NCBI GenBank assembly: GCA_965238175.1
Contig: CBDEGZ010000003.1
Coordinates: 1,472,001 to 1,536,000, forward strand
Direction of reading: 5' to 3'
Origin: Gammaproteobacteria bacterium
Lineage (GTDB): Bacteria; Pseudomonadota; Gammaproteobacteria; CAJXQU01
Length of the DNA: 64,000 nt
This document shows positions 15,609-39,289 of this stretch, one piece after another. Below the pieces are notes generated by a model. The model worked only from the letters and a program-made list of their open reading frames with translations, had not been told where the DNA came from and ran no database searches. The translations under genes were made by a program, and so were the position numbers. Numbering within the stretch: the stretch's first letter is position 1; every line of letters begins with the position of its first letter.

Positions 15609-15813
15609 CTTATAAAAATATGATTATTAAATTATTAAATAGTCTTTTTCTTCAGGAACACCGTTTAATCAATGTAACGCAAATGTAACTTTCAGTGTCA
15701 ATAGTGTGACAAGGTTGACATTAAGTAAGACGTTCTGTATAAATTGTTGGCGTTGATAACGTATTTTATCCACAGTGGATTACAAGGATTGTAAACACAT
15801 TTTCAAGGAGGAA

Positions 15814-16191
15814 ATGATTGTGATAGACGTATCAGTTAGAGATTGTCCTCATGGCTCAATTCTTGTGTTAGCCGGTGAGTTAAATGCAGTGACTTCGAAT
15901 GACTTATTTAAAGAAGTTATCAAACAAGCACCTAAAACCCCTGCGCATATGTTTTTTGATTTTTCCCAGCTTCGGGTTGTTACGGCTGCAGGTTTACGTA
16001 CCTTATATAAAATTTTCCAAATGACACATACAGATTGTAAGTTAATCTTTTGTGCCACTCATAATACTGCTGGCTTAATGCTCTCTAAAGTCGGCTTTCC
16101 AAATCTGGTTACATTTCACGAAAGTTTATCTATCGCACAATCGGAGATCGAAATTAGTGATTGGAGTCAGAAAGAGTTAGAAATATCATGA
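15814..16191 (+). CDS. STAS-domain (anti-anti-sigma-like) protein
   Basis: LAGELNA..FDFSQLRVVTAAGLR..GF pattern; AAGGAGG SD just before ATG 15814. Confidence 0.75.
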   Translation: MIVIDVSVRDCPHGSILVLAGELNAVTSNDLFKEVIKQAPKTPAHMFFDFSQLRVVTAAGLRTLYKIFQMTHTDCKLIFCATHNTAGLMLSKVGFPNLVTFHESLSIAQSEIEISDWSQKELEIS

Positions 16192-18353: not shown

Positions 18354-19688
18354 GTGATGATTATGAATCAGTTTAATTACATTACGAAATCTCTGAATCA
18401 AGCCTCGAACCAGTATCAGCCATACCGGCCGAAGGGGAGAGTGATACAGGTTTCTGGAACAGTGATCAAAGCGATCATTCCACAAACTGGAATGGGTGAC
18501 ATCTGTTTGTTGCGTAATCCAGGTGATCCAAAAGGGCTTCGTGCTGAAGTGGTAGGTTTTGAAAATGAAATTGCTTTGTTGATGCCATTGGATGATGTCA
18601 ATGGGGTTTCATCAAGTACGGAAGTAATAACGAGTGGTCTAAACGATACCATTGGTGTTGGTATGGAACTAAAAGGTCGTATTCTAGATGCATTTGGAAA
18701 GCCAATAGATGAGGAAACCAATGGACCATTGAATACTCGAGAACGTTATCCAATTAATGCATCTCCTCCAAATCCTTTGACACGAGCTTCAATCAATAAG
18801 CCAATTGATTTGGGAGTAAAAGTCATCGATGGTTTTTTAGCTTGTGGTGAAGGACAACGAATGGGGATTTTTGCAGCGGCAGGCGTTGGTAAAAGTGTAC
18901 TCCTTGAAATGATGGTTAGAAATGCCAACGTCGATATGGTTGTGGTAGCACTTATTGGCGAGCGTGGACGTGAGGTTCGAGAATTTATCGAAGAGAACAT
19001 AAAAAATGGAGGTATGGAAAATACAATAATGGTCGTTGCCACTGCTGATCGTCCTCCATTGGAACGTGTTAAGGCCGCCCATTCTGCAACTGCTATCGCC
19101 GAATATTATCGTGATCAGGGTCAGCGTGTTTTGTTATTAATGGATTCGGTAACACGCTATGCAAGAGCACAGCGTGAAATTGGACTGGCTGCAGGCGAAA
19201 CACCGACAAGACGTGGTTATCCATCTTCTGTTTTTGCAAAACTGCCTAAGTTATTCGAACGAGCAGGAAATTCGTCTTCAGGATCTATTACTGCACTTTA
19301 TACAGTACTTGTTGAAGCTGATGATATGAATGAGCCTGTCGCTGATGAGGTTCGTTCTTTACTTGACGGACACATCGTTTTATCTCGAGAACTTGCCGCG
19401 AAAAATCACTACCCAGCCGTTGATGTATTAGCGAGCTTGAGTCGTTGTATGCAAAGAATTGCTGATGAAGATCATCTTTACGCTGCTGGTAAAGTCAGGC
19501 GCCTTTTGTCAAAGTTGGATGAAATAAAATTACTATTGAGAGTCGGTGAATACAAAGAAGGAACTGATCAGGAAGCGGATGAAGCAATAAGAAAGAAAGA
19601 GTTAATAGAAGCGTTTTTACAACAAGGAAGAAATGAAAATTTCACATTTGAATCTATGCTGGAACAATTAATGGAGTTAGCATCATGA
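18354..19688 (+). CDS. sctN: T3SS ATPase SctN
   Basis: [56 protein letters not shown]. Confidence 0.96.
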
Positions 19689-20206
19689 GTAACAATAGCG
19701 ATCTAAATGAATTAAAAAAAATACGAGAATTGAAATCTGAAAATCAGCAACAAGTTGTTAATCAGCTCGAACAGGAATTTCAAGAAAGAGGCACGGCGCT
19801 GAATTTGATTGATAGTACGATTGAAATGTTTAAACAAAAAAAAGTTACACTGGAAGCCGCACTTTTCACTGAAATTGAAGGAGAGGAGGTCGTTGGAGAT
19901 GAATTACATGAATATGCTGAAAAAATGAAAGAAATATCTGCTTACGGTGAAAAATTGGAAGATCAATATAGCGTTTTGCAAGAACAGCAAGTCATATCTG
20001 GGGATATGTTAAAAGAAGCACGAAATCACCTGGTAGAGTGTTGTAATGAAGTCGAGAAAATTAAACTTTTGATCGAAGAAGAACAGAAAAAAGATTCGAT
20101 TGCTAAATCCAGAAAAGAAGAAAATGAATTTGATGAAGAAGCATCTATGAAGTGGAACAGGAATCAAGTGAAACCTAAAGATCCTGAAAAAGGAAGAACA
20201 AAATGA
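19685..20206 (+). CDS. sctO: T3SS stalk SctO (YscO/FliJ-like coiled coil)
   Basis: Charged coiled-coil overlapping the sctN stop; C-terminal EENEFDE motif. Confidence 0.7.
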
Positions 20207-20829
20207 GGGGGGTAGCATTATTAATTCTAATGGGACTGTTTATCCTTCCTTCAATGGTTCAAGGGTTAAATGCAGCGGAACTAAAATGGAAGCAAACGTA
20301 TTATTCTCATTATGCAGATGGTGAAACGTTGGAAACTGTGTTGCAGGATTTAATGTATAGCGAAAAAATTCCAGTAATAGTTAGTAACAAGATAGACGCT
20401 AATGTCAATCTTTATCTGGAAGGAACGTCACCTGTTGAAGTTTTTGATCGTTTATCTAAGACATACCAATTTGTTTGGTATTACGATAATCAGGCATTGT
20501 TTGTTTATGACGTTACAGAATTGATGAGTGCAACCCTCAAGCTTGATCATATTTCTAGTGGAGAGTTCACCGATATTGTAAAAGAAATGGGTATTTATGA
20601 TCAAAAATATGGTTGGGAATACGCCAATGATCGCGATGTAATTTATTTTACTGGGCCACCAAGGCTGGTAAATTTAGTTATGGAAATGTCTGAGGTGTAC
20701 GATATAGAAAAGCCAATGAATAAATCCCAGGTGGTAGTGTACAGATGGAAAGATAAAAGTGGTGTTTCAAACTTCAGTACAAGACCACCTGAGGACCCAT
20801 CACTTTATTACTCGATGCGTGAAGAATGA
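20203..20829 (+). CDS. Truncated secretin SctC (signal peptide + N0-N1 only; RhcC1-like) with DUF4124-like tail
   Basis: YscC N-terminal motifs (IPVIVS, LSKTYQFVWYYDNQALFVY, IYFTGPPRLV); only 208 aa; no beta-barrel domain follows. Confidence 0.8.
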   Translation: MRGVALLILMGLFILPSMVQGLNAAELKWKQTYYSHYADGETLETVLQDLMYSEKIPVIVSNKIDANVNLYLEGTSPVEVFDRLSKTYQFVWYYDNQALFVYDVTELMSATLKLDHISSGEFTDIVKEMGIYDQKYGWEYANDRDVIYFTGPPRLVNLVMEMSEVYDIEKPMNKSQVVVYRWKDKSGVSNFSTRPPEDPSLYYSMREE

Positions 20830-20892: not shown

Positions 20893-22332
20893 ATGGAAAA
20901 CAATCAAAAATCAGTGAAAATAAAGATCATCGCTGGACCAAATGAAGGTGCCGAGTCTGTGCTTAAGCCAGGGCGTTATATGTTGGGTAAAGATGATTCA
21001 TGTGATCTTGTTATTCGCGATGATAGCCTTGCAGATCATCACCTTGATCTGGAAATTTCCTTGTCTGATGAAATTGTTCTGTTTCCTCTTGGTGGAGACG
21101 TGTCAATAAATCATCAAGCTTGTGAAGCAGGTTCTCTTGTGCACTTATTTGAAACTGTCAGTCTTGGGAATACACAATTTATTATTGGACCAGGGCATTC
21201 AGGTTGGCCTGAATTGTCTGATGGTGATAGTGAAGAAAACATAAGTGAACTAACTGATAAAAATAGTTCTCCTATAATTGAAGAGCCAGTTACTGATTCT
21301 AAAAATAACAAAAGACCAAGTCTTAAGGGATTTAAGGGATTTAAGGAATTGGGAAGTAAGATAAATGAGGTGGTTACAAATTTATCTACGACCTTAGAAT
21401 CCGCTGGAGAATCAGCTTGGCAAAAATCTAAATGGATAGTAATTATTGTAGCAAGCCTTTCTGTATTGATAATTGTAGGCTCAAGTTTAGGAACGGATAT
21501 GCTTGCAACAAAGGAGGCTGCCATAACAGTTAGTCAACCTGAAGCGGTTGATTCAATTTTCGAAGATTCACAATATTCCGAAGATTTAGTAATAGAAGAC
21601 TCATCATCTGGAATGCCGGTTTTGAAAGGGTATATTGATGATGTAGAGGCGTTTAAATCTTTTAAAATAAAGTTTAATAACCTGTCGACAGATATTATTT
21701 TTGATGTGAAAAATACTACTGAACTTGCAAGCCAGGCGCAGGAAATTCTCCACTCGATGAATTTTGAAAAAGTGACACTAATGCCAATGGAGAAAGGAAA
21801 TCTTGTTGCTAAAGGTAGTATAAATGATTCAACTTCATGGTTAAGAACTAAAACTCTTATTCAAAAGGATGTGAAAGGTATTAGTTCAATTGAAGATAGT
21901 GGTATTAGAAACCAGGAAACATTTGTTCGCTATATACAGATGGTTATTAAAAAGTTATCGCTTGATAGCTTGCTAGACATAAGCGTAAACAGGGATCCAG
22001 ACTCGATCAAAGTCATAGGTAACTTATCCGAAAAGGAATATAAAAATTGGCGTCAGATTAAAAATAGTTTTCAACAGCGTTATGGCAGCCTGATCCAAAT
22101 AGATGATAAGAAGGTAACAATAAAGAAAAGAAGTTTACTTAGACTTGCAATAAAAAGTGTAAGCATTGGCGATGTTTCATATATAAAGCTTAAAGACAAT
22201 AATAAGTACATGATTGGCTCAATCGTTGATGGTGGGTACAAAATTGAAGATATCCAACCGAGTAAATTAATTTTGAGCAGAAACGACAGGAAGTTTAATT
22301 ATCTAATAGGTGAAGGAAAAAGTTATGAATGA
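20893..22332 (+). CDS. sctD: T3SS inner-membrane ring SctD (YscD/HrpQ)
   Basis: FHA-like N-terminus (GPNEGA..LGKDDSCDLVIRD..H), one TM, periplasmic repeats, YscD C-terminus IKSVSIGDVSYI. Confidence 0.88.
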   Translation: MENNQKSVKIKIIAGPNEGAESVLKPGRYMLGKDDSCDLVIRDDSLADHHLDLEISLSDEIVLFPLGGDVSINHQACEAGSLVHLFETVSLGNTQFIIGPGHSGWPELSDGDSEENISELTDKNSSPIIEEPVTDSKNNKRPSLKGFKGFKELGSKINEVVTNLSTTLESAGESAWQKSKWIVIIVASLSVLIIVGSSLGTDMLATKEAAITVSQPEAVDSIFEDSQYSEDLVIEDSSSGMPVLKGYIDDVEAFKSFKIKFNNLSTDIIFDVKNTTELASQAQEILHSMNFEKVTLMPMEKGNLVAKGSINDSTSWLRTKTLIQKDVKGISSIEDSGIRNQETFVRYIQMVIKKLSLDSLLDISVNRDPDSIKVIGNLSEKEYKNWRQIKNSFQQRYGSLIQIDDKKVTIKKRSLLRLAIKSVSIGDVSYIKLKDNNKYMIGSIVDGGYKIEDIQPSKLILSRNDRKFNYLIGEGKSYE

Positions 22333-22564
22333 ACTGATTTCAAGTGCGAATACAGAATTGGAAGTGAGCTTGCTTAATGATGTCTCGGGTGAGTTTAAGC
22401 AATCTTTAATCGAAAAGCTTAATCTTGAGAGCAACAGGATAAATCAATATCTTACGAAAGGTCTTTTGCCTGAGCAATATCAAAAATATAGCGCCTTAGT
22501 AAATGCTATTAATCAATCAATAAAAACAATCGAAAATGTGTGGGTAAGATTTCATGGAGAATAG
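22325..22564 (+). CDS. YscE/SsaE-family needle co-chaperone
   Basis: ~79 aa helical; ELEVSLLND..GLLPEQYQ..L..AI pattern; directly after sctD. Confidence 0.75.
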   Translation: MNELISSANTELEVSLLNDVSGEFKQSLIEKLNLESNRINQYLTKGLLPEQYQKYSALVNAINQSIKTIENVWVRFHGE

Positions 22565-22568
22565 AATT

Positions 22569-22979
22569 ATGGAACCAGTACAAAAAAGTAACGATCAAAA
22601 TTCTCAAATGGCAATCGAAGTTGATAAAATGTTTTTTAAAACACTCTCACAAATTGGTTATATGGCGTGTATGAAGGGTATGCCAACCGAAGGTGAAATG
22701 ATTATGGAAAGCCTGGCTGGTTTGAAATCTGAGAATTCAGCAATTTTATTAGGGTTAGCGTTTTCAAAAATCACAATGATGAAATTTACCGATGCAGAAA
22801 AGGTAATCCGTGGAGTACTTGATAAGGACGCCAAGAATTTAACAGCAAAATGTTTTCTGGGTATTACACTGTTTGGTTTAGGTGATAGAAAACAAGCACA
22901 AGTTTACTTTGCTGATGTTCTGGCATTGGGTAATGATGATGAAAAAGCCATTGCCAAAGCTTATATGTCAGTAGAATAA
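22569..22979 (+). CDS. YscG/SsaH/EscG-like TPR needle chaperone
   Basis: TPR-like helices (LSQIGYMAC, AILLGLAF, AKCFLGITL); adjacent to the YscE-like gene. Confidence 0.65.
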   Translation: MEPVQKSNDQNSQMAIEVDKMFFKTLSQIGYMACMKGMPTEGEMIMESLAGLKSENSAILLGLAFSKITMMKFTDAEKVIRGVLDKDAKNLTAKCFLGITLFGLGDRKQAQVYFADVLALGNDDEKAIAKAYMSVE

Positions 22980-23004: not shown

Positions 23005-23628
23005 ATGATAGAAGCAATTGAAGCAGCAACTGCATATAGTCAGACGCTAGATGTTAGCCAGTTATCACCAGGACAGACAACACAGCTAGACGCATCTCAT
23101 CAAAATATCGCGACGATTATTCAGCAGGCCGAAATGTTAGATCAAAATGGTGGAATAAACCAGCTTCCAAACGCCATCGAAACAAGTTCTTTGAAAAATA
23201 TTGGTGAGGAGCAAAGCTTTGGAGATAAGTTGTTCGGCAGAGTTTCAATGATGGATGGCAAATATACTGATATTATGGATCGCATGAAGAACGATTGGCC
23301 AGGTTATGGCAAAAACTTGGCAGAAAGAGGTGTATCTCTAAAGCAAGGATTAGAGAGTGGTGGAGGGATCACTCATATTTCAAATATCGGCAAAGGTGCC
23401 GAGGTTGGTAAACCTCAAACTCTTGAAGAAACAGTCAGCAATAGAATAGAACAAATGGAGCAATTTCGATCGAAGCAGGCTACATTTCAAGCTGCAGCTA
23501 TTCAAGCCGCACAAGATACAACATTTTGGTCTATGAGTGCAAAGATGTGGATGACAAAAGTGCAGGTTTTGACATCTGCAGTTTCTCAAATCAGTACTGG
23601 TTTCAGAACGTTATTCAACGCGCAGTAA
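23005..23628 (+). CDS. Probable T3SS inner rod SctI (long variant)
   Basis: C-terminus LTSAVSQISTGFRTLFNAQ resembles YscI/HrpB2/EscI; N-terminus MIEAIEAA. Confidence 0.6.
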   Translation: MIEAIEAATAYSQTLDVSQLSPGQTTQLDASHQNIATIIQQAEMLDQNGGINQLPNAIETSSLKNIGEEQSFGDKLFGRVSMMDGKYTDIMDRMKNDWPGYGKNLAERGVSLKQGLESGGGITHISNIGKGAEVGKPQTLEETVSNRIEQMEQFRSKQATFQAAAIQAAQDTTFWSMSAKMWMTKVQVLTSAVSQISTGFRTLFNAQ

Positions 23629-23785: not shown

Positions 23786-25011
23786 TGTAGAAGTTTAGAC
23801 CCAATCTGACACATCACTAAATCAAGCGGAGCGTAGCGACGCTTGATTTAGTGAGAGTTACCCGCTTTGATGTAACTGCAACGTAAACATCAAAACACAA
23901 AGAGGTAACTCTCATGATTCATACTAATGACAAAGTTATAAAACATAAAGTTGGTCTACTCAATCTCGCTGAAGAACTCGGCAATGTCTCAAAAGCCTGC
24001 AAGATGATGGGTTTGTCCAGAGATACATTTTATCGCTACAAAGAAGCGGCTGATGAAGGCGGTGTAGAAGCCTTGTTTGATCGTAATCGGCGTACCCCAA
24101 ATCTTAAAAACAGAATCGACCCGGCTATTGAAACCGTTGTGCTCGAGTATGCACTGGAAGAGCCCGCACATGGTCAAACGCGCACCAGTAACGAGCTGCG
24201 CAAACGGGGAACATTTGTCTCACCCAGTGGCGTTCGTTGTATCTGGCTTCGTCATGGTCTTGCTTGCTTTAAAGATCGCCTGAAGGCATTGTCTGATAAG
24301 GTAGCTGGTGAAGGCTTGATCCTCACTGAGTCTCAAGTCGCGGCGATGGAACGCAAGAAAGACGACGATGAGGCTTGTGGCGAGATAGAGACGGCACACC
24401 CTGGTTATCTTGGCTCGCAAGATACTTACTATGTCGGTACTTTCAAAGGCATTGGTCGGGTTTATCAACAAACGTTTGTTGATACTTACAGCAAGGTCGC
24501 TCACGCGAAACTGTACCCGACTAAAACACCGATTACGGCAGCTGACATGCTCAATGACCGCGTCCTCCCATTCTACGAAGAACAACGTTTGCCTATGTTG
24601 CGCATTTTGACAGATAGAGGGACGGAGTATTGTGGGCGAGCTGACCAGCATGATTATCAGCTTTATATGGCGTTGAACAATATCGAACACACCAAAACCA
24701 AGGTCAAATCACCTCAGACGAATGGTATTTGTGAGCGATTCCATAAGACGATCCTCAATGAGTTTTATCAAGTCGCTTTGCGTAAGAAAATTTACCAATC
24801 GATTGATGAACTGCAACTCGACCTTGACGAATGGTTGCTCAAATACAATACTCAACGAACTCACCAAGGCAAAATGTGCTGCGGGAGGACGCCGATGGAA
24901 ACACTCATCGACGGACAAGCTATCTGGAAGGAAAAGTTTGTGAATTAAACTTAACCTGACAGTCGGTTACTGATAATTGGGTAACTGTCAGATCAAATCT
25001 GAATTTCTACA
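23786..25011 (+). mobile_element. Complete IS481-family insertion sequence (1226 bp)
   Basis: 26-bp imperfect TIRs TGTAGAAGTTTAGACCCAATCTGACA / TGTCAGATCAAATCTGAATTTCTACA; 7-bp direct repeat CATGATT at 23779-85 and 25012-18. Confidence 0.93.
23914..24948 (+). CDS. IS481-family DDE transposase
   Basis: HTH (GNVSKACKMMGLSRDTFYRY) plus rve core (GSQDT, LTDRGTEY, PQTNGICERFH). Confidence 0.95.
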   Translation: MIHTNDKVIKHKVGLLNLAEELGNVSKACKMMGLSRDTFYRYKEAADEGGVEALFDRNRRTPNLKNRIDPAIETVVLEYALEEPAHGQTRTSNELRKRGTFVSPSGVRCIWLRHGLACFKDRLKALSDKVAGEGLILTESQVAAMERKKDDDEACGEIETAHPGYLGSQDTYYVGTFKGIGRVYQQTFVDTYSKVAHAKLYPTKTPITAADMLNDRVLPFYEEQRLPMLRILTDRGTEYCGRADQHDYQLYMALNNIEHTKTKVKSPQTNGICERFHKTILNEFYQVALRKKIYQSIDELQLDLDEWLLKYNTQRTHQGKMCCGRTPMETLIDGQAIWKEKFVN

Positions 25012-25831: not shown

Positions 25832-26569
25832 TTAACCCGAATGCAGGTTAGTTGAGCAGGATGCTATTTTCTGGTGATCCTGCTTATTCAATGCGGGTAA
25901 TTTTTTTGCAAGAATACGTAGAAGTTTAACAGGCGTATGCCTGAAATAGCCTAACAAGACTTCTGAGCTAGAATTACCTATTTTGTGTCCATCAACTCGT
26001 AGTTGTTGCAATTGAGAGTTGAGTTGCGGCTCATAATGTCTAAGACAGCCGATCAAATAATAGGCTGATGAGTAATTTTTAGAACCAATATAACTTGGCG
26101 ATATCTTAATATTTAAATTTTTGACGAAATTAATAGAAAACTCAGTTGCCAACCCTTCTTCTAGTGCATTCCCATTTCCAACAATCGGTGACAGTGTGTG
26201 AAAAACCTCGTGTCCCAGTTGAAACAAAGCGCGTTTTTTCTCCAGCATAGCCTCCCTTGTTAGTTGTATGACAACATGTTCTTGGTTTCCGGGAAACCAG
26301 ATCTGTGGTGCAGGATTATCGCTAAACTCATAACCTAAAATTGTGTAGTCTTTATCACGTGGGCCGATAATAGCTTCGGCTTGTACAATAGCTCTTCCGA
26401 TAAAAGTTGCTAATGTGTAGGTATACAGACACTCTACTTGATCCTCGCAAGTGGTCGTTTTCACTAGTGACGATAGAATTGGTTGTTGACTTTCGGCAAC
26501 GCTAGATAAAGAAGTAAGAGTAAATAATAAAGCTGTTAATCTTAAGAAAAAGAGTCGCATTCTGATCAC
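25832..26569 (-). CDS. Exported hypothetical protein with HEXXH zinc-peptidase motif
   Basis: Sec-type signal peptide; FQLGHEVFH and downstream LEEGLA. Confidence 0.7.
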   Translation of the reverse strand: MIRMRLFFLRLTALLFTLTSLSSVAESQQPILSSLVKTTTCEDQVECLYTYTLATFIGRAIVQAEAIIGPRDKDYTILGYEFSDNPAPQIWFPGNQEHVVIQLTREAMLEKKRALFQLGHEVFHTLSPIVGNGNALEEGLATEFSINFVKNLNIKISPSYIGSKNYSSAYYLIGCLRHYEPQLNSQLQQLRVDGHKIGNSSSEVLLGYFRHTPVKLLRILAKKLPALNKQDHQKIASCSTNLHSG

Positions 26570-26575
26570 CTGAAT

Positions 26576-27214
26576 TTAAAAAAGTTTAGCCGCCTCTATT
26601 GCAGCTTGCGTTCGATTATTGACACCTAATATTCGAAAAATTGCCGTACAGTGTATTTTTACCGTAGGCAAAGCCATATCAAGTTCACGGGCAATTTGTT
26701 TATTTGAATGGCCTTGGTGAATCAGATGTAAAACTTCGATTTGGCGTTTTGTTAATCCGCTCTCATCAATTTCGTTATTATTTAACTGGACAGGTAGTTC
26801 ATTAATTTTTGTATCAACTTCTATTTCAAAGTTGATTGCAGGACAGACTATTTCTCCCTTAAGAATTCTACCAATAACATGGCTAACAGTTCGCCATGTA
26901 AAATTAGTCGAGACGCAACCATTAGCACCGCGTGAAACGGTTGTACGAATTTGATCACTTGTTTCAAAATCACCAACAACTAAAATAGGTATATTTGGGA
27001 GACCAGCATGAAGTTGTTCAAGAATAGCCCAGCCATCCTTCGTTAAATCCATGTAAAGAACGATCAAATCATAGGCTTCAGATGTTTTTTGCTCAGAGAG
27101 AGCAGATTGAAATTTAGTTGCTTCATATACATATGCGTTTTCATCATATTCTTTGATCAAATTACAAAGACTATTACTGAAAAGTGCATACTGACAGATA
27201 ACAATTGCTTTCAT
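26576..27214 (-). CDS. NarL/LuxR-family transcription factor with atypical receiver domain
   Basis: LuxR HTH LTKRQIEVL..GHSNKQIARELDMALPTVKIH..LGVNNRTQA; overlaps the sctU stop. Confidence 0.9.
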   Translation of the reverse strand: MKAIVICQYALFSNSLCNLIKEYDENAYVYEATKFQSALSEQKTSEAYDLIVLYMDLTKDGWAILEQLHAGLPNIPILVVGDFETSDQIRTTVSRGANGCVSTNFTWRTVSHVIGRILKGEIVCPAINFEIEVDTKINELPVQLNNNEIDESGLTKRQIEVLHLIHQGHSNKQIARELDMALPTVKIHCTAIFRILGVNNRTQAAIEAAKLF

Positions 27215-28260
27215 ATTTCAGGGTTAAGTTGATTCAAATAGTTTGCTGTTTTCGTAACAGCATGACCTGGGATTGATCCATCAATAAAACCTTCTTCATC
27301 GAAAATCTGTGTCAGTTCATTATCATGAATTATCGGAATATGATCTGTTTCTGCGACATCGATCATTCGTTTCAGCATTGCCCCATTTCCTTTACTCAAG
27401 ATGATTGGTAATTCCATATCAGGTTCGTAACATATCGCTATAGCAACATTCGCATAGTCTGTCACAATCATACGAGTTTGTCTCATCCGTTCATCAAAAT
27501 CATCGTTCACAACTTCTAAGAACATTGAACGTCTGGCACCTTTGAGCATTGGATCGCCTTCGGAATTTTTATAATCGCGTTTTGCTTCTTCTTTAGTCAT
27601 TTTTTGACCTTCAAGAAAATAATGTTTTTGTAGTAGAAAATCAAATATGGATAAAAATATTAAAAGGGGTAAGAGTGCCAGAAACATTCTGGTAATCATT
27701 ATTTCTAACAGCGATAAATAACATTCAAGATCACAGTACTCTGTTTTAGCAGGCAAACTCTTAATGGTCTCGATAATAAGGAAAGATGTGATAATGCCAA
27801 TGAAAATGATTTTTGCACATGCCAGCAACGTTTCGCCGACACTTTTCAGAGAAAAAATCTGCCCGGCATTACTTACTGGATTTATTCGTTGAATTTCTGG
27901 TTTTATAGCAAAAAAAGCAAAGATTACTCCAAATTGGCTAACACTTGAGAGTATTATGGCAATAGTAATGATCACTAACAACGGTAAAATAATAAATTTC
28001 AATACGATGGAAAACATATGGATAAGTGCTAATGGAACAGCTTTTTCGAAATCCATTGTATAAAACTGTGAGGGAGATTGGATAATATCAATCAGGTATC
28101 CAAGGATATTGTCCCAATGAACATAAAAGTAAAGTGCCGCTATTAGCATTGACGCAGCAGTAACAATTTCTTTACTTTGGGGGACTTGTCCCTTATCACG
28201 GGATTCCTCCAGCTTACGTTTGGTCGCTTTTTCGGTTTTCTTACTTTTATCTTCAGCCAT
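27211..28260 (-). CDS. sctU: T3SS export switch SctU (NPTH motif absent)
   Basis: KTEKATKRKLEESRDKGQV, INPVSN..IFS, KMTKEEAKRDYKNSEGDP; follows sctRST. Confidence 0.9.
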   Translation of the reverse strand: MAEDKSKKTEKATKRKLEESRDKGQVPQSKEIVTAASMLIAALYFYVHWDNILGYLIDIIQSPSQFYTMDFEKAVPLALIHMFSIVLKFIILPLLVIITIAIILSSVSQFGVIFAFFAIKPEIQRINPVSNAGQIFSLKSVGETLLACAKIIFIGIITSFLIIETIKSLPAKTEYCDLECYLSLLEIMITRMFLALLPLLIFLSIFDFLLQKHYFLEGQKMTKEEAKRDYKNSEGDPMLKGARRSMFLEVVNDDFDERMRQTRMIVTDYANVAIAICYEPDMELPIILSKGNGAMLKRMIDVAETDHIPIIHDNELTQIFDEEGFIDGSIPGHAVTKTANYLNQLNPEI

Positions 28261-28277: not shown

Positions 28278-29063
28278 CTATTGCAAGATCTTCATCAAGA
28301 GATCAGGTAAAAATTCTATCGATAGGATTTTATTTCTAATAAAGACCAAAATAGTACCGAGGTATAAAGCCAATACAAAAAGTACCACAGTACTTTTAAT
28401 CGGTATAGCGAGCAGGAATACGTTGACCGTTGGGACGAAGCGACCCATTAAACCCATTGAAAGTTCGGTTAGAAACATGATCAAAACAAAGGGAGCTGCC
28501 ATTAATAGTGCAAGGGCTAGAATGTTATCAAAATGTTGTAGAAGAATAGTAGCAGTCTCTATATTTAATTGAGGGTAATAGGAAGTTACTGGCCAGATGA
28601 CATAGGTTTGATAGATGACTGTCAACAGGGCGAGGAAGCCACCCACTGAAAAAAATAATACAGCTATGACTTGGGCAAAAAATGATCCTAAAAGTGAAGT
28701 TTGCCCACCAATAACAGGAGAAAACAATTGGGCAGTCAGAGCACCACGTTGCAAATCAATTATTTCACCCATTGATGCAACAGCCCAAAAAATGATGGCT
28801 GCTACATATCCGATGAGCAATCCCAGAACAGCTTCTTTAACAATCACGAGGATAAACAAAAGTCCATTAACTTCCACGACAGATAATTGTTTTGAAACTA
28901 CCGGTAAAATTATAACTGATAATATGATCGCAACACCGTTTCTGGCCGTTGTAGAAATGAGTTGACGACGAAAAAAAGGTAGTACCATAAAAATTATCAA
29001 AAATCGGGGAAGCGTTACTGTTAAAACTAATAACCAATGCTGTCCTGCAGAAATTATGTCCAT
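28278..29063 (-). CDS. sctT: T3SS export apparatus SctT
   Basis: KEAVLGLLIG, GEIIDLQRG, GRFVPTVNVF..PIKS. Confidence 0.93.
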   Translation of the reverse strand: MDIISAGQHWLLVLTVTLPRFLIIFMVLPFFRRQLISTTARNGVAIILSVIILPVVSKQLSVVEVNGLLFILVIVKEAVLGLLIGYVAAIIFWAVASMGEIIDLQRGALTAQLFSPVIGGQTSLLGSFFAQVIAVLFFSVGGFLALLTVIYQTYVIWPVTSYYPQLNIETATILLQHFDNILALALLMAAPFVLIMFLTELSMGLMGRFVPTVNVFLLAIPIKSTVVLFVLALYLGTILVFIRNKILSIEFLPDLLMKILQ

Positions 29064-29087: not shown

Positions 29088-29363
29088 TTAATGAGTCACT
29101 GTTGAGATCATTACGTACATTTGATCTGTAAACAGCATTAACTCGCGGCCCATCCAGTGAGCCGTAAATAGTATTACGATGATAGCCCCGACTAATTTTA
29201 GACCGAATGCCAGGGTTTGATCTTGTATCTGCGTCAAAGCCTGAAATAAACCAACTAAAAGTCCAATAACAGTCGCAGCTATTGTAACCGGTAGCGAAAG
29301 ATATAAAACCAATAGCAGGCTTTGAGAAGCAAAATGAATAATCTGTTCTTCATTCATATCCAA
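29088..29363 (-). CDS. sctS: T3SS export apparatus SctS
   Basis: GLLVGLFQALTQIQDQTLAFGLKL. Confidence 0.94.
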   Translation of the reverse strand: MDMNEEQIIHFASQSLLLVLYLSLPVTIAATVIGLLVGLFQALTQIQDQTLAFGLKLVGAIIVILFTAHWMGRELMLFTDQMYVMISTVTH

Positions 29364-29372: not shown

Positions 29373-30029
29373 CTAGACATAACTTAAAACCAGGCCATGA
29401 ATTAAACGTGTCCAACCATCAGCCATAACGAATAATAAAATTTTAAAGGGTAAAGAGATTAATATCGGTGACATCATGATCATCCCCATTGCGAGCAGGA
29501 TGTTTGCTATTACTATGTCAATAACGATAAAAGGCAGATAGACGAGAAAACCAATCTGAAACGCAGATTTCAATTCGCTTAGGACGAAAGAAGGCATTAA
29601 TACGAGAATATGTCGGTCATCCATATTGACTGCCTGGTCGTCAGGCCAGAGACGGCTTGTTGTGGAGACAAAAAATTCGCGTTCATCCTTGTCAGAATGG
29701 CGAGCAAGAAAATTTTTGATCGGTTCAAGACCACCGCCAATAGCATCATGGAGTTTAGGGTTTTGTAAATCGTTTATTTCTACATTGTGAGATTTGAACG
29801 CATCTATAGATGCAACTCCGACGGGAGCCATGATAAACAATGACAAGATTATGGCTAACCCATTAATGGCCATTGTGGGTGGAGCTTGTTGTAAGCCGAT
29901 AGCGTTACGCAGGATAAACATAACGACAACGATTTTGAGATATGAACTGACCATGATTGCAAGAAACGGTGCAAGAGCCAGGATAGATAATCCGCCTAAT
30001 AGTAGAAGGGGATTTGGTAATGCATCCAT
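29373..30029 (-). CDS. sctR: T3SS export apparatus SctR
   Basis: LRNAIGLQQAPP, SELKSAFQIGF, ISLPFKILLFV..DGW; no signal peptide (unlike FliP). Confidence 0.95.
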   Translation of the reverse strand: MDALPNPLLLLGGLSILALAPFLAIMVSSYLKIVVVMFILRNAIGLQQAPPTMAINGLAIILSLFIMAPVGVASIDAFKSHNVEINDLQNPKLHDAIGGGLEPIKNFLARHSDKDEREFFVSTTSRLWPDDQAVNMDDRHILVLMPSFVLSELKSAFQIGFLVYLPFIVIDIVIANILLAMGMIMMSPILISLPFKILLFVMADGWTRLIHGLVLSYV

Positions 30030-30032: not shown

Positions 30033-31142
30033 TTATTTACCTAAAAATGATTTTAAACGAACTCCTGTTGTGCCTTCGATGTTAACTATTTCACCAATAC
30101 CTAATAATTGACCATTACTAAAAATATGAACTGACTTATCTATCGGTTTATCTAACGAAAATATATAGCCAGGACTAAGTGCTTTCACTTGAGAAATTGG
30201 TAATGAAACACTTCCAAGTTCGAATTCTAACTTAACGTTAATTTCGTCAATAAAATTCAATTCTTGATCTAGACCCTCTTGATAGCGGCGGTTAGGCTTG
30301 TTTTCTTTATGTTTGTCTTTTCCAGAGCTCTCTTCTGACATTTCAATATCCTTTTTAAATTGATTTGGTATTTTATCAACAATCAAAATATCCTCTTTCT
30401 CGGACGATTCCGAATCTGATTTTTTCAGCTTCAATGTTAAATGGAGACGATCAGAAATCGTCGCCATCACTCTGTTCTCATCTCCAAAAATATCTTGATC
30501 GAAAAGAACCACATCACCAGTTTCCAGGCTGTACAACTCTGAAGATGTCAGTATTGATGAACCAATAAGAAGCTGGGTGTTAAGACTAAGTTGTTCAAAA
30601 TCATTTGTTGATGTGGCCTGATGTTGAAGTAACTGTACTAATTCAGCGGAACTATCGCTATTAACTTTAATTGTTCCTGTCGCAATTTGCCCCGATTCTG
30701 ATGTCAAATGATAGTATAAAACGTAGGGATCAGAGAAAATATAAGGTTTAGCCAATTGTATTTCCTTTTCGACGGCATCAAACAAGATGGGTTTCTCATC
30801 AATAATATTCTCTATCCAGTGAAGAACTGGTGAAAGTAAGACCTTACTCGTAAGTTTTCTTACCACACGAGATCGTGAGCGTAACAAAGGAATGACATCA
30901 AGATTATTTTTCTTAATAAATTCGGGCCATTGATTTATCGTGATGATAAAAGTCGAATTACCAGATTTAAGAATAGTGGCGTACTCAGGTTGAGCGGCAT
31001 TTTCCTCATTTTCTAACGATAAATGTAGTTTATAGTTTTGACCATCAATTTTAATATCCACAGGTGAAGCATAGGCAGAGATTAAATTATTCACCGTCAA
31101 TACAGACTTATTTATACATGGAAACTCGGCTAAAGTATTCAT
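30033..31142 (-). CDS. sctQ: T3SS cytoplasmic ring SctQ
   Basis: Two SPOA domains (LETGDVVL; LEFELG..GEIVNIEGTTGVRL). Confidence 0.85.
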   Translation of the reverse strand: MNTLAEFPCINKSVLTVNNLISAYASPVDIKIDGQNYKLHLSLENEENAAQPEYATILKSGNSTFIITINQWPEFIKKNNLDVIPLLRSRSRVVRKLTSKVLLSPVLHWIENIIDEKPILFDAVEKEIQLAKPYIFSDPYVLYYHLTSESGQIATGTIKVNSDSSAELVQLLQHQATSTNDFEQLSLNTQLLIGSSILTSSELYSLETGDVVLFDQDIFGDENRVMATISDRLHLTLKLKKSDSESSEKEDILIVDKIPNQFKKDIEMSEESSGKDKHKENKPNRRYQEGLDQELNFIDEINVKLEFELGSVSLPISQVKALSPGYIFSLDKPIDKSVHIFSNGQLLGIGEIVNIEGTTGVRLKSFLGK

Positions 31143-31144: not shown

Positions 31145-31735
31145 TTAAAATGGACCTCCATCAGAACTCGTGTGATCAAGATCGATGTTAGTACGGAAAA
31201 TATCTTCCAGCTGAGCTATTTTTTGATCAGCATTGACATGCACCACACCCATTTCAGATTCGATTATGCAATCATCTTTCTCAATACGATGATCAGCTAC
31301 CACATTAACTTTTCCAGACAAGGATTCTATATCTCTTAATCTAAGTAAGGTTTTATGAGGAATGCTTGGCGAAATTCTAAGTGTGATTTCTCGTGCGTTA
31401 GATAATTCAGATAAACTTTGCTGCACTGATTGAACTAAAAATTCATCAGGCTCGTAGTTTGCAACAATTTTCCTAATATTATTCAAGACAACATCAACAA
31501 TGTCATTCTCTAATTGTTGAACGTAATCAATAGAGTCAGAAACAAGTGATAAAGATTCTGCAAGCGCTTGAGATTTTGCATCCTCTTGTCCTTGAATCAA
31601 TCCTTTTTTATAGGCAATTTTGCAGATTGTTTCTGCGTAGGCCAGGATATCTTCTGCTTTTTGCTGATTCGAATCATTAGTTTGAACAGACTCAAGTATC
31701 TCGTCTACATCATTAGATTTAATTATATTCTTCAT
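31145..31735 (-). CDS. sctL: T3SS stator SctL (YscL/FliH family)
   Basis: AYKKGLIQGQEDA GxxxG repeat, C-terminal DCIIESEMGVV. Confidence 0.85.
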   Translation of the reverse strand: MKNIIKSNDVDEILESVQTNDSNQQKAEDILAYAETICKIAYKKGLIQGQEDAKSQALAESLSLVSDSIDYVQQLENDIVDVVLNNIRKIVANYEPDEFLVQSVQQSLSELSNAREITLRISPSIPHKTLLRLRDIESLSGKVNVVADHRIEKDDCIIESEMGVVHVNADQKIAQLEDIFRTNIDLDHTSSDGGPF

Positions 31736-32447
31736 GGATCACTCCTTGATCAAGGGTCGAGGTATTTTCAGTTTTTACATGGATTGAATTATGCTCAAAA
31801 TGATCCGTTAATAACCTTATTAATTCCACACAATTTGATTTCTTATAAGCAGTCATTTGATTTCGATTAGACAAATAAGAAAGACTATTTTTTCCAAGCT
31901 TTAATATAAGGCGAGTTACCAGTGCCTTGCTTTCATTGTTGAGCGCTCGACCTAAAACAATTAGTCCATTAGCAAAAACTTGTGTCTTTAATGGCTTTTT
32001 CATATCGAATCTAACCTGAGTTAAATTTGGAATTTGGCGACACATAGTCGTTGCTTCATGAATAGCGAAGATATACATATCGGTACCGAGTTGATTTTTA
32101 AACTCTATAACATCGCTCTTCATAATCGTTTGTTTTATTTGATCACAAACGGATACTACACCGAGTAACATAACAAACTTTGATAACTCAAGAGGAGATA
32201 ACAAACTTATTTTTTGTGTAGGAGTCTTAAATTTCAGAAGAGGAGTATCTTTCAATTTAAAATGTTCCAGAACTATTTTTGAGACAGCAACTTCAGCTTC
32301 AGTTTTATGGCTAAGGATCCTGAGTTCTTTTCCATCCTTTATGTTTTCCCACCAGCTGTCGTGTAGATACCGGGTGGGTAAAAAGTTCAGAACATAAGAC
32401 TTATCAAATATTTTCTCAGTCATTACACCCACCTTAGATAGATCCAT
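31719..32447 (-). CDS. Probable sorting-platform protein SctK
   Basis: Lies between sctJ and sctL; FLPTRYLHDSW and RLILKL motifs resemble YscK/OrgA. Confidence 0.65.
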   Translation of the reverse strand: MDLSKVGVMTEKIFDKSYVLNFLPTRYLHDSWWENIKDGKELRILSHKTEAEVAVSKIVLEHFKLKDTPLLKFKTPTQKISLLSPLELSKFVMLLGVVSVCDQIKQTIMKSDVIEFKNQLGTDMYIFAIHEATTMCRQIPNLTQVRFDMKKPLKTQVFANGLIVLGRALNNESKALVTRLILKLGKNSLSYLSNRNQMTAYKKSNCVELIRLLTDHFEHNSIHVKTENTSTLDQGVIHEEYN

Positions 32448-33318
32448 TAACAGTTTGTCGTACTGACGCCTTTTTCCTTGAGCTTACGGGTGCTTGATTT
32501 TTATCATTTACCTTCTTAACAAGTAGGCCAATAATAACCAGCATTACAAGAAAAAATATTACAAACAGGCTAATAATAAAACGAATTGTAGTTGCAGATT
32601 CTGTTGGAACACGAACACCTGAAACACTGGTCCAGCGAGACGAGGTTTCATCAGATTCTATTGAGTTAGTTGCAGGCAGAATGACGACAGATATCTTGTC
32701 GTACGTTAAACCCTCGATACTTTTCTCAACAATAAATTTGATCTCGGATTTGAAATCTTCAAGATTGCTATTTGCTAAGGATTTAATAAAAACAGAAGCT
32801 GAAGATGGCTTTATATCTTCATTAAAAGGATTATTCTCAGGTAAAACGATATGAACTCGTGCGGTGACAACACCATCAATACGTGACAAGGTCTCTTGAA
32901 CTTCTTGCTTTAAGGCATAGATATATCTAACGCGTTCTTCAATAGGTGAGGAAATCAGCCCTTTTTTGTCAAAAAGATCAGTCACCTTCACAAAAGTTTC
33001 TCTTGGAAAGCCCTTTTGTTTCAATAAAGACAACGCAGAAGGGACTTGTGATTTTTCGATATGTATTGAAAGTGTTTTATCTTTCTTATCGACAACCTTG
33101 TCTGTACTTACCCCATTACTTAACAGGATTGCCATCATCTGATTTGCATCTTCTTCACTTAAATTAGTGAATAAAGGCTCTTTACACGAACTAAGAACCA
33201 ACAACAACATGAAAGCAGAAAAAAGCTTGACCAAACACACACGATCTAATTTTGGGGAAGATAGTGATATATAACGACTGTAACATTCCATATTCATAAC
33301 CGGACTCCTTTCCGACAA
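32434..33318 (-). CDS. sctJ: T3SS inner-ring lipoprotein SctJ
   Basis: Lipobox LSSC, LSEEDANQM, GLISSPIEE, IDGVVTARVHIVLP, SASVFIK, C-terminal TM. Start codon uncertain. Confidence 0.95.
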   Translation of the reverse strand: MSERSPVMNMECYSRYISLSSPKLDRVCLVKLFSAFMLLLVLSSCKEPLFTNLSEEDANQMMAILLSNGVSTDKVVDKKDKTLSIHIEKSQVPSALSLLKQKGFPRETFVKVTDLFDKKGLISSPIEERVRYIYALKQEVQETLSRIDGVVTARVHIVLPENNPFNEDIKPSSASVFIKSLANSNLEDFKSEIKFIVEKSIEGLTYDKISVVILPATNSIESDETSSRWTSVSGVRVPTESATTIRFIISLFVIFFLVMLVIIGLLVKKVNDKNQAPVSSRKKASVRQTVNGSI

Positions 33319-33620: not shown

Positions 33621-33866
33621 ATGGTCGGCAGCGTAGACATTAGTGATTTAACATTAAAGCAGTTACTGCACTTCTATCAAGATGCTGTTACTGCGGGTAA
33701 TAACCAGCCTTTTAAACAGAGAAGTCAATCAGAAACTAAAATGACTGACCAACAGGATATAAAGAAATTTTCTGAGGCCATGGATAATCCATCTGATACC
33801 CAACCCAAGGTTGATCAAAGTCTTGCTAATATTGTGGATGATCTAATTAAAATAATCGGTGAATAA
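33621..33866 (+). CDS. Small hypothetical protein OrfA1 (paralog of 39628-39873)
   Basis: Shares DLTLKQLL..Y, QQDI.KFS and DQ.L..IVD.LIK.IG with 39628-39873. Confidence 0.75.
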   Translation: MVGSVDISDLTLKQLLHFYQDAVTAGNNQPFKQRSQSETKMTDQQDIKKFSEAMDNPSDTQPKVDQSLANIVDDLIKIIGE

Positions 33867-35901: not shown

Positions 35902-36126
35902 ATGTTTGGTATTTTTGAAGGTTTAATTCAAGGGCAAGAGCAACGACAGGCACAATCTCTTGCGGCTCAATCTAGAATACAACAGTCGAGTCAAGATCAT
36001 GAAGCAATGTCATCTATGATGAAATTGGAATTTGATGTGGTAATGGCGACGATTGAAAGATTAGCTTCTGTCGGCGAGAAAGTTGCAAATCTTACAGAAA
36101 CACAATCACAGCAACTTGCTAACTAA
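35902..36126 (+). CDS. Small helical protein, candidate T3SS pilin/needle subunit 2
   Basis: 74 aa, SD AAGGAGA, Q/S/A-rich helix; DVVMATI..TETQSQQ resembles DSVMAKI..TDRQSER of 34097. Confidence 0.6.
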   Translation: MFGIFEGLIQGQEQRQAQSLAAQSRIQQSSQDHEAMSSMMKLEFDVVMATIERLASVGEKVANLTETQSQQLAN

Positions 36127-36325: not shown

Positions 36326-39289
36326 ATGAACGGAGTAACCGGAGCAGGGCCAGGACCAAGCGTATACAATCTACCCAAAGATGGACAAGGAGGCTTTGCA
36401 ACCAAACAAGGAGGCTTTGCAACCAAAGAGGGTCGCAACGGACCAGGAATAGGGCCAAATGGGCAAGCTGGATCATTTTACTCAGGCTTTATCCCAGCAG
36501 GACAACCAGGAACACCAGGATCACCAGGATCACCAGGACGACCAGGAGTCGGATCACCAGGATCACCAGGACGACCAGGAGTCGGATCACCAGGATTACC
36601 AGGACGACCAGGAACACCAGGAACACCAGGAACACCAGGACAACAAGGGGTCGGACCAACAGGAGCACCAGGAGCACCAGGAAACCCAGGATTTGGAAAC
36701 CCAGGAACCCCTGGTCAGAATGGAAACCCTGGACAGCCAGGTCAGCGAGGACCAACAGGATATGGAAACCCAGGAACCCCTGGACAGAATGGAAACCCTG
36801 GAAACCCAGGTCAGCTTGGACCCCAAGGATTCCGAGGAAACCCAGGTCAGCTTGGACCCCAAGGATTCCGAGGAAACCCTGGTCAGAATGGAAACCCTGG
36901 ACAGCCAGGTCAGCGAGGACCAACAGGATATGGAAACCCAGGAACCCCTGGACAGAATGGAAACCCTGGAAACCCAGGTCAGCTTGGACCCCAAGGATTC
37001 CGAGGAAACCCTGGTCAGAATGGAAACCCTGGACAGCCAGGTCAGCTTGGACCCCAAGGATTCCGAGGAACCCCTGGTCAGAATGGAAACCCTGGACAGC
37101 CAGGTCAGCGAGGACCAACAGGATATGGAAACCCAGGAACCCCTGGTCAGAATGGAAACCCTGGACAGCCAGGTCAGCGAGGACCAACAGGATATGGAAA
37201 CCCAGGAACCCCTGGACAGAATGGAAACCCTGGAAACCCAGGTCAGCTTGGACCCCAAGGATTCCGAGGAACCCCTGGTCAGAATGGAAGCCCTGGACAG
37301 CCAGGTCAGCGAGGACCAACAGGATATGGAAACCCAGGAACCCCTGGACAGAATGGAAACCCTGGACAGCCAGGTCAGCGAGGAGCAACAGGATACCCTG
37401 GTGCTCCTGGTATAGGAACCCCTGGTCGGAATGGAACCCCTGGTCAGCTTGGACCCCAAGGATTCCGAGGAAACCCTGGTCCGCAAGGACGAACAGGATA
37501 CCCTGGTGCTCCTGGTATAGGAACTCCTGGTCGGGATGGTCAGCCAGGAGCCCAAGGAGCCTCTGGTCGGGATGGTCAGCCAGGAGCCCAAGGAGCCTCT
37601 GGTCGGAATGGTCAGCCAGGAGCCCAAGGAGCCTCTGGTCGGGATGGTCAGCCAGGAGCCCAAGGAGCCTCTGGTCGGAATGGTCAGCCAGGAGCCCAAG
37701 GAGCCTCTGGTCGGGATGGTCAGCCAGGAGCCCAAGGAGCCTCTGGTCGGGATGGTCAGCCAGGAGCCCAAGGAGCTACAGGTGCTACAGGTGTAGGACA
37801 AATAGGTGCTTCAGGCGAAGGTTTCATCGAATGGTTCACTAGAGTGGAGGGTGATCAAAATGGAGATGACGTAATAACTAGAGAAGACGTCAGAATCTGG
37901 TTAAGAGGTGATAAAGGTGACACTGGAGCACCTGGAGCAACTGGAGCAACTGGAGCAACTGGAGCAACTGGAGCAACTGGAACACCTGGAGCAACTGGAC
38001 AAGCCGGAGCGAAAGGTGACAGAGGTGATAGAGGTTACAATGGAGCACCTGGAGCAACTGGACAAGCCGGAGCGAAAGGTGACAGAGGTGATAGAGGTTA
38101 CAATGGAGCACCTGGAGCAACTGGACAAGCCGGAGCGAAAGGTGACAGAGGTGATAGAGGTTACAATGGAGCACCTGGAGCAACTGGACAAGCCGGAGCG
38201 AAAGGTGACAGAGGTGATAGAGGTTACAATGGAGCACCTGGAGCAACTGGACAAGCCGGAGCGAAAGGTGACAGAGGTGATAGAGGTTACAATGGAGCAC
38301 CTGGAGCAACTGGACAAGCCGGAGCGAAAGGTGACAGAGGTGATAGAGGTTACAATGGAGCAACTGGAGCAACTGGAGCACCTGGAGCACCTGGAGCAAC
38401 TGGACAAGCCGGAGCGAAAGGTGACAGAGGTGATAGAGGTTACAATGGAGCACCTGGACGAGATGGTGAGCGAGGTGAGCGAGGTGAGCGAGGTAGGAAT
38501 GGCTACAATGGTCGAGATGGTCAGCCTGGTAGGAATGGCGGACATGGCGGATATGGCCCAGTAGGTCGTCCGGGACCAAGTGGTCCGAGTCCAAGTGGTC
38601 CGTATCCAAGTGGTCCGAACCCAAGTGGTCCGAGACCAAGTGGTCCGAACCCAAGTGGTCCAGGTACAAGCCCAACACGCCCGACAAGCCCGAGCCCAGC
38701 ATGTGCAAATGATAATGGTAGGTTTAGTCAGCAGCTGGAACAGCTTACACAACTTCTTAGCCGACTCACTGAATTACTCAGTAGTTTCTCAGGTGGCGGG
38801 AATGGCGGGAAAGGTGGTGGTTACCCAAGCACAGGTGGTGGTTACCCAGGATCAGCAGGACCAGCAGGATCGCCAGGTGAAAGAGGTTACCCAGGATCAG
38901 CAGGACCAGTAGGACCAGTAGGACCGCGAGGTTACAATGGTATGGACGGTAGGGACGGCATGATAGGACCACCGGGACCAGCAGGACCACCGGGACCAGC
39001 AGGACCAGCAGGACCAGCAGGACCAGCAGGATCGCAAGGTGAAAGGGGTTACCCAGGACCAGCAGGACCAGCAGGATCGCAAGGTGAAAGGGGTTACCCA
39101 GGACCAGCAGGACCAGCAGGATCGAAAGGTGGCGGTGGTGGCTACTCTCATAGCACGGGGAGATCATCAACATTTGATACAATAAATAATGTACTGAGAA
39201 CCTTGGCGCCTATTTCGAATGTGATCGAAGGTTTGATCAATGCGTTCAGCGGCGGTGGCTCGCGGTCTCATAGTGGGGGTGGTTATTAA
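36326..39289 (+). CDS. Collagen-like (Gly-X-Y repeat) protein with harpin-like helices; no Sec signal
   Basis: 987 aa, mostly G-X-Y triplets in several repeat blocks; SD AAGGAGA; non-collagen islands near aa 495-530, 770-830 and 935-987. Confidence 0.92.
36500..39125 (+). repeat. Coding tandem-repeat arrays (9-, 36-, 63-bp and longer units)
   Basis: 36-bp units at 37528-37775; 63-bp [21 protein letters not shown] units x7 at ~37990-38455; 15-bp GPxPS units at 38573-38660. Confidence 0.95.

Follow-up and report, generated by a model that had tools for sequence, protein, structure and literature searches.

A type III secretion export-gate protein, SctU, without the NPTH autocleavage motif in an environmental gammaproteobacterium and its relatives

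The Asn-Pro-Thr-His (NPTH) turn of the export-gate proteins FlhB, YscU and EscU cuts itself by cyclisation of its Asn residue. The literature regards this autocleavage as common to the whole FlhB/SctU family and as necessary for substrate switching (PMC7064499, PMC3189125); debate continues on its exact role, for instance as a signal or as a conformational requirement (PMC4620466). A 64,000-nucleotide stretch of a gammaproteobacterial genome, hereafter the window, carries on its minus strand a sctU gene (27211..28260) whose product, an export-gate protein of 349 aa belonging to the FlhB/SctU family, does not contain the NPTH motif. This raises the question of how such a protein can serve a system of type III secretion (T3SS), and of whether it is cleaved at all. 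The analysis presented here makes it rather probable that it is a naturally uncleaved SctU in a T3SS devoid of a cleavage- and ruler-dependent substrate switch. No description of a natural NPTH-less SctU was found in open-access papers and bioRxiv.

Profile searches leave little ambiguity as to the family. SctU matches PF01312 (Bac_export_2, the FlhB/YscU/SpaS family) with 244.1 bits (E 3e-72, cut-off 24.4), residues 7-341 being aligned on profile positions 2-331 of 335. Its top-scoring model is TIGR01404, the NCBIfam SctU equivalog (256.2 bits), with the flagellar FlhB model TIGR00328 behind at 199.3. The genome contains three PF01312 matches, namely FlhB, SctU and a 94-aa FlhB-tail open reading frame (ORF) located elsewhere. 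In the columns where the family has NPTH, SctU reads DYAN (residues 268-271; 27448..27459, minus strand; codons GACTATGCGAAT), whereas residues 269-272 of the FlhB encoded in the same window (44952-46076, plus strand) are NPTH (45756-45767, codons AACCCGACTCAT). This correspondence is obtained in three independent alignments (phmmer against solved FlhB/YscU chains, BLASTP against the window FlhB, and MAFFT with homologs), with in-frame flanks MIVT...VAIAICY in SctU and VIVT...YSVALKY in FlhB; the two proteins share 24% identity (E 2e-25 in BLASTP). The alignments also show the downstream helix to be diverged, ELTQIFD in SctU facing PLARALY in the window FlhB. The original prediction, made from the DNA letters, had pointed to DYAN facing NPTH and to this diverged LARAL helix, and both of its coordinate pairs are exactly right. 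It had further argued that a change of all four residues goes beyond a single-base error. This argument stands, because sctU contains neither frameshift nor stop, both flanks keep the reading frame, an error would have to involve five or more base changes and a 72%-identical ortholog reads DYTN; sequencing error and frameshift are therefore ruled out. One Asn-Pro of SctU (residues 346-347) lies four residues before the C-terminus and is not found in this ortholog. The missing motif is real and biologically meaningful, and SctU is a lineage-level version of a known kind of protein.

How far does the loss extend among relatives? The 72%-identical ortholog comes from a gammaproteobacterial metagenome-assembled genome (MAG; locus L004) with the same gene order, and the next relatives retrieved by a word-indexed protein search, at 38-40% and 30-31% identity, are also without Asn-Pro. 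Scanning one genome per species yielded 80 loci, and the motif was read in 45 of them; Asn-Pro is absent in 34 of these 45. Among them are all 30 of the loci L005-L034, which belong to Thiothrix, Thiolinea, other Thiotrichales and two MAGs labelled only Pseudomonadota, and in which the loop is mostly D-IG, D-MG or G-SQ, one residue shorter. L036 (a Granulosicoccaceae MAG), L037 (a symbiont of Bugula neritina) and L039 likewise have no Asn-Pro, while 11 of the 45 loci retain it as NPTH, NPTE, NPVH or NPLR. The search for other NPTH-less orthologs, proposed as a check in the original prediction, has thus been fruitful. The same prediction had considered that the closest orthologs might all keep NPTH, making this allele a strain-specific decay. 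In fact the closest ortholog and the 30 next-closest genomic homologs all lack it and the gene is under purifying selection (see below), which rules out a strain-specific decay. A wider sample was drawn with a HMMER profile built from eight sequences without Asn-Pro, which matched 14,423 proteins at E <= 0.001. The best 150 of these, together with the word-search relatives, gave 156 proteins, one of which is incomplete and has no residues at the site. Among the remaining 155, the nearest 50%-cluster representatives, 98 have Asn-Pro and 57 do not, in a sample that is weighted to the neighbourhood of the query and gives no family-wide frequency estimate. The statement that Asn-Pro is near-invariant is consequently false for this part of the family.

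Phylogenetic trees were computed after removal of the motif columns. In a FastTree analysis of this sample, the rows without Asn-Pro fall mostly in two starred clades, which they fill in 32 of 32 rows (support 96) and in 19 of 20 rows (support 99). The Asn-Pro label requires eight changes on this tree, five of them forced by the starred branches, versus about 46 with shuffled labels. Reference SctU proteins were then included, one each from Yersinia (Ysc), Providencia (SPI-1-like), Burkholderia (SPI-2-like), Bradyrhizobium (Rhc), Pantoea (Hrp1) and Ralstonia (Hrp2); all six carry NPTH. With these references, the window SctU belongs to a clade of 36 rows, none of which has Asn-Pro (support 97). 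An IQ-TREE quick tree of a 68-row subset places it in a clade of 23 rows, again all without Asn-Pro (support 85), with an inner group of 11 rows at support 97. Its sister group (support 96) is a clade of 20 rows that all have Asn-Pro (support 97); Ysc, SPI-1-like, SPI-2-like, Rhc and Hrp1, five of the six named families, belong to it. With one representative per family and single-protein trees, the location of the window SctU outside the named T3SS families is provisional. In the IQ-TREE subset, the label of missing Asn-Pro requires three changes. Since the flagellar outgroup and the basal Myxococcales-type rows carry Asn-Pro, several independent losses are more plausible than a single loss followed by exact regain.

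Loss of the motif is accompanied by signs of maintained function. Between SctU and its L004 ortholog, the ratio of nonsynonymous to synonymous substitutions (dN/dS) is about 0.15 (dN 0.165, dS 1.10), and about 0.14 for the C-domain alone. Nine genes of the surrounding cluster have dN/dS values of 0.07-0.25 against the L004 locus, which is 66-89% identical. The family-invariant residues D207, G235 and P285 are present in SctU (150-sequence alignment). AlphaFold2, run on a 150-sequence alignment, gave a confident model, with a mean predicted local distance difference test (pLDDT) of 93.8 and a predicted template modelling score (pTM) of 0.75. The family is described as having four N-terminal transmembrane helices (PMC7064499); the model contains long helices at 30-66, 71-110, 138-168 and 178-218, followed by a C-domain of the cytoplasmic type, where the DYAN turn is bordered by strands 264-267 and 272-277. 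In a Foldseek search of the PDB, the matches comprise the C-domains of YscU, EscU, Chlamydia CT091, PscU, Spa40, SpaS and FlhB, with a probability of 1.00 for YscU, EscU, CT091, PscU and FlhB. The top matches are engineered non-cleaving mutants of YscU, EscU and CT091, which are single chains across the site, and the predicted C-domain superposes on such mutants. The root-mean-square deviation (rmsd) is 1.0-1.8 Å over 91-98 columns in seven of the top 11 matches; for four YscU mutant chains aligned over 113-117 columns it amounts to 7.8-10.5.

Conservation was compared column by column between the sequences with and without Asn-Pro. The four loop columns have 3.2-4.3 bits in the former group and 1.0-2.1 bits in the latter, and the T-N-P-T-H columns go from 4.3 bits down to 1.0-2.1. 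Without Asn-Pro, Asp stands at the first loop position in 40% of cases and Gly in 24%, Ser, Ala, His and Arg also occurring, and the second position is often Gly or a gap. Elsewhere, conservation drops only at A296, at A317/R318 of the LARxL helix, at L334 and at E340; in the R318 column, the LARxL Arg falls from 71% to 19%. M221, E225, K227, K231, G235, P237, R243, Y278, P285, A303 and L316 are conserved in both groups. Because the drops are confined to the loop, the LARxL helix and a few positions, the rest being conserved, constraint has been released specifically at the cleavage loop and the neighbouring helix, which is not a pattern of general decay. As far as the sequences go, the prediction of a naturally uncleavable SctU is supported: Asn-Pro is missing, the site retains no conserved residue, the predicted fold is kept and selection is purifying. 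The motif-less state is an old, selected trait, common to whole groups of environmental bacteria.

What becomes of the substrate switch in such a system? In the LARxLY helix, SctU has Gln in place of Arg and Asp in place of Tyr. The latter residue, Asp321 (codon at 27298..27300, minus strand, derived from the ORF start at 28260), aligns with Tyr317 of YscU and Tyr318 of HrcU. According to one study, HrcU Y318D, equivalent to YscU Y317D, shows less cleavage, does not bind T3S4 and renders late substrates active without HpaC (PMC3040844). Asp321 in the window SctU and in its ortholog fits a constitutively permissive conformation. Profile searches for the HrpJ/SctW gatekeeper gave no match in the genome of the window and none in five related genomes. 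The T3S4 ruler domain (PF02120) has no match in four Thiothrix/Thiolinea genomes; the genome of the window has only two, about 1.2 Mb outside the window, and both are read here as flagellar. One T3S4 protein, with a FliK-type C-terminal domain, is encoded at G000:C3:2727000-2727517 (loci L003, L091), and the 94-aa free FlhB-tail ORF is located directly downstream of it. In the Bugula symbiont locus, sctO is followed directly by sctQ, with nothing between the two genes.

The original prediction had proposed an SctU locked in one export state. This is too specific a description, since it extrapolates from engineered mutants of systems with a ruler and a secretion hierarchy. EscU N262A is described as secreting only very low amounts of effectors, with uncleaved EscU folding correctly (PMC3189125), and a study of SpaS states that the switch is not signalled by cleavage as such, which instead gives SpaS a competent conformation (PMC4620466). 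The idea that no cleavage-dependent switch operates at all appears to fit better than a protein stuck in an early state, because neither ruler nor gatekeeper was detected and because an Asp occupies the position of the Tyr at which the ruler can be bypassed. SctU would then be a working export-gate subunit of a divergent non-flagellar T3SS, remaining a single uncut chain. In this lineage, the NPTH turn would have been replaced by an ordinary, unconserved beta-turn, with no autocleavage; the canonical switch, in which the T3S4 ruler acts on the cleaved PTH loop, would not be used, and SctU would serve only as a gate and docking subunit.

The genes around sctU make up an intact non-flagellar T3SS cluster. 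sctU is the last gene of a minus-strand sctJ-K-L-Q-R-S-T-U operon comprising sctT (28278-29063), sctS (29088-29363), sctR (29373-30029), sctQ (30033-31142), sctL (31145-31735), sctK (31719-32447) and sctJ (32434-33318). A plus-strand half follows the order STAS-sctV-N-O-short sctC-D-E, with a STAS-domain protein gene (15775-16191), sctV (16284-18353), sctN (18354-19688), sctO (19685-20206), the short sctC discussed below and sctD, which has a Y4YQ_C domain (20893-22332). Pfam identifies all of these sct genes of the two halves, with NCBIfam for each as well, and the STAS-domain gene. Downstream of sctD, profile matches indicate the needle co-chaperone gene sctE (22310-22564, plus strand) and a SctG/CdsG-like (YscG-like) TPR protein (22554-22979, plus strand). 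A 207-aa protein (23005-23628, plus strand) occupies the SctI position; this assignment uses its position and the weak T3SS_basalb_I match of its counterpart in the Bugula symbiont, an ORF that is not among the phmmer matches to the 207-aa protein. SctV, SctR, SctS, SctT, SctJ, SctQ, SctD and SctE all score above the non-flagellar NCBIfam cut-offs. A second flagellar system is ruled out, since the profile scores of SctV, SctJ, SctD, SctK, SctE and the ATPase are of the non-flagellar kind and the flagellar export genes form a separate set at about 40.4-59.5 kb. The nearest relatives of the cluster are found in Thiotrichales. In the window the STAS gene, of the anti-sigma-antagonist-like kind, stands directly upstream of sctV; L004 and Thiothrix loci show this pairing too, and the STAS protein may be a conserved regulator of this type of T3SS. 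On the other side, a LuxR-type response regulator gene (26576..27214, minus strand; Pfam) has its start overlapping the stop of sctU and is kept in L004.

The outer parts of the machinery are less easily recognised. The short SctC gene (20203..20829, plus strand) encodes 208 aa with N0 and N1 domains only, matching positions 2-143 of the 463-position SctC model, and homologs of this short form were found in 23 of 34 related loci searched and in five of five related genomes. None of the six secretin-domain genes of the genome scores above cut-off as a full-length, single SctC-type secretin. A 535-aa unclassified secretin, below all model cut-offs, is encoded elsewhere in the genome (G000:C3, about 1157462-1159069) and is a possible C-terminal partner of the short SctC, which would give a split secretin like that of Rhizobiales. 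In the Bugula-symbiont genome, a 471-aa secretin of the C-terminal type adjoins the short SctC gene. A T3SS with no secretin at all, as in the Myxococcus T3SS*, was considered and not adopted, given the conserved SctC N-terminal gene and the C-terminal-type secretins in related genomes. For the needle, the Pfam model has no match across the genome, the 74-aa helical protein encoded at 35902..36126 (plus strand) included; this protein is tentatively the counterpart of a small Thiothrix ORF in SctF (needle) position (phmmer E 1.2e-4 to L019, profile E 0.0047). These small helical ORFs are weak candidates for needle proteins.

Could SctU nevertheless cut itself by another chemistry, for instance at Asp268, so that a cleaving switch with a different motif is retained? 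An Asp residue can in principle form a cyclic anhydride, and Asp is the first loop residue in SctU and in 40% of its relatives without Asn-Pro. It should, however, be noted that Asp268 is followed by Tyr and not by Pro, that the clade conserves neither of these positions (the first can also be Gly, Ser, Ala, His or Arg) and that many loops are one residue shorter; the conserved LARxL Arg is also gone. Moreover, Asn-to-Asp mutants of YscU (2w0r) and EscU (3bzr, 3bzs) are single PDB chains spanning the site, the mutant chains having 94-122 residues versus 80-83 in the cleaved native EscU C-terminal chains. Alternative cleavage of SctU is unlikely on these grounds, and we give it the smallest chance of the explanations weighed here. 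A hardly greater chance is given to a decaying relic, in which the motif would have been lost by relaxed selection in a horizontally acquired island. The ortholog is present in one of six other species genomes of the genus, the remaining ones matching SctU at the FlhB level only (23-25% identity); the G+C content of the cluster is 36.7-38.8% versus 40.3% for the window; and an insertion sequence (IS) element with an rve integrase and helix-turn-helix (HTH) domains (23914-24948, plus strand) is located within it. The cluster is therefore an accessory island, probably of horizontal origin. The missing full-length secretin gene and the NCBIfam score of SctU, below cut-off, would also suit a relic. 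Decay is, however, not what the genes themselves display: the core T3SS genes are all open and full length, selection on the nine genes mentioned above is purifying, and the IS element interrupts no ORF, lying between the convergent ends of the two cluster halves, which are 10 bp apart in L004. The architecture, including the short SctC gene and the loss of NPTH, is furthermore kept across Thiothrix and Thiolinea species.

A better candidate than these two, although still a rather improbable one, is a switch that is kept and triggered without cleavage, another partner such as the STAS protein or an undetected ruler acting on the remodelled surface of the loop and helix. An early substrate is implied by SctE and SctG, which are needle-type chaperones, the STAS gene accompanies sctV in Thiothrix as in the window and L004, and the conformational role given to cleavage in the SpaS study is compatible with such a switch (PMC4620466). 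On the other hand, the loop and LARxLY surface is unconserved in the clades without Asn-Pro, which is unexpected for the binding site of a conserved partner. The reading preferred here, an uncleaved SctU with no cleavage- and ruler-dependent switch, has its own difficulties. The absence of autocleavage is inferred, and SctU remains under the 358-bit cut-off of TIGR01404. Rulers and gatekeepers diverge fast, so that absence is poorly attested by a missing Pfam match, and PF02120 may overlook some of the injectisome T3S4 proteins. Asp at the YscU Y317 column is found in only two of 62 rows without Asn-Pro, those of the window SctU and its ortholog, and therefore does not explain the clade. The needle chaperones in the window and the small ORF in SctF position in Thiothrix suggest that the system probably builds a needle-like early substrate, for which some ordering of export may still be needed. 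The patchy occurrence of the cluster in the genus, the IS element inside it and the uncertainty of deep branches in single-protein trees also weigh against this reading.

Comparison with characterised systems helps to delimit what is particular to this SctU. It resembles YscU, EscU, SpaS, HrcU and FlhB in Pfam family, in the predicted N-terminal helices and cytoplasmic C-domain and in its position at the end of the sctRSTU operon; it differs from YscU, EscU, SpaS and HrcU, which have NPTH and the LARxLY Arg and Tyr, by the absence of NPTH and by Gln and Asp at these two helix positions. The engineered mutants YscU N263A/N263D, EscU N262A/N262D/P263A and the CT091 mutant, the best structural matches to the model, are uncut single chains; the fold thus tolerates an uncut loop. 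However, these mutants are losses of function in switch-dependent systems, whereas the state seen in the window is natural, old and selected, with additional changes in the helix. The suppressors HrcU Y318D and YscU Y317D have Asp at the position aligned with Asp321 and, unlike the window SctU, retain NPTH.

Several features recall the T3SS of Rhizobiales (Rhc): the N-terminal part of SctC has a short gene to itself, SctD bears a Y4YQ_C domain and, in the Bugula symbiont locus, sctO and sctQ are adjacent. HrpB1- and HrpB4-like genes in the latter locus are likewise reminiscent of split-secretin systems of the Rhizobiales/Hrp2 type. The split secretin genes of Rhizobiales are called RhcC1 and RhcC2. 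Two secretin genes of complementary function are reported for Rhizobiales by Abby & Rocha (PMC3459982). RhcU of Bradyrhizobium, however, retains NPTH and groups with the named families and not with the window SctU. The 'needleless' T3SS* of Myxococcus, reported to be without secretin, needle and translocon genes (PMC12075869, PMC3459982), is likewise an atypical, non-virulence T3SS of an environmental bacterium; the window cluster differs from it by retaining the SctC N-terminal gene and needle-type chaperones. The three Myxococcales SctU homologs of the sample keep NPTH or NPVH. Among plasmid-borne sequences, 469 records matched the window SctU, all with less than 60% identity and with about 29% at most among the 40 listed. 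On the Rhizobium sp. N741 plasmid pRspN741c (L102:8935-9732), the annotated SctU has only 265 aa and ends before the first strand of the C-domain, so that the whole autocleaving domain is missing; three further Rhizobium plasmids match query residues 21-250/252 only.

Some neighbouring genes deserve mention in their own right. Downstream of sctU and of the LuxR-type regulator gene, a 245-aa protein (25832-26569, minus strand) has a hydrophobic N-terminus and an HExxH motif (GHEVFH); it matched no Pfam or NCBIfam family and, of the 34 related loci searched (L004-L037), only L004 has a homolog of it. Adjoining the T3SS cluster, just downstream of the small SctF-candidate ORF, a gene (36326-39289, plus strand) encodes a 987-aa protein in which collagen-like Gly-X-Y repeats take up nearly the whole length (Pfam Collagen, E 8.5e-96), and two paralogous 81-aa ORFs (33621-33866 and 39628-39873) flank this region. 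In the T3SS cluster of Thiothrix eikelboomii (L023), a protein-glutamine gamma-glutamyltransferase (TGL) gene (L023:5824-7053) is found between the short SctC gene and sctQ, and an NfeD-like gene follows sctU.

These data draw attention to a widespread, so far uncharacterised type of T3SS in Thiothrix and further non-pathogens, in which a short SctC gene stands on its own. Natural cleavage-free lineages under selection would provide a ready comparison set, in which SctU functions as a gate with no need of cleavage, and they indicate which residues co-vary with cleavage, namely those of the loop, Arg and Tyr in LARxLY and three more positions. They would also allow the coupling between cleavage and ruler to be tested directly. 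A broader scenario is conceivable, which we put forward tentatively and consider less probable than the uncleaved state of SctU itself. On the trees, self-cleavage would have been lost at least three times, in large environmental lineages (free-living, sulfur-oxidising bacteria including Thiothrix, invertebrate symbionts and the present gammaproteobacterium), giving switch-less injectisomes that lack ruler, gatekeeper and cleaved PTH loop and in which secretion has no hierarchy as textbooks understand it. If this were true, the relaxed loop and LARxLY helix would mark the surface that, in canonical systems, serves only the ruler-driven switch.

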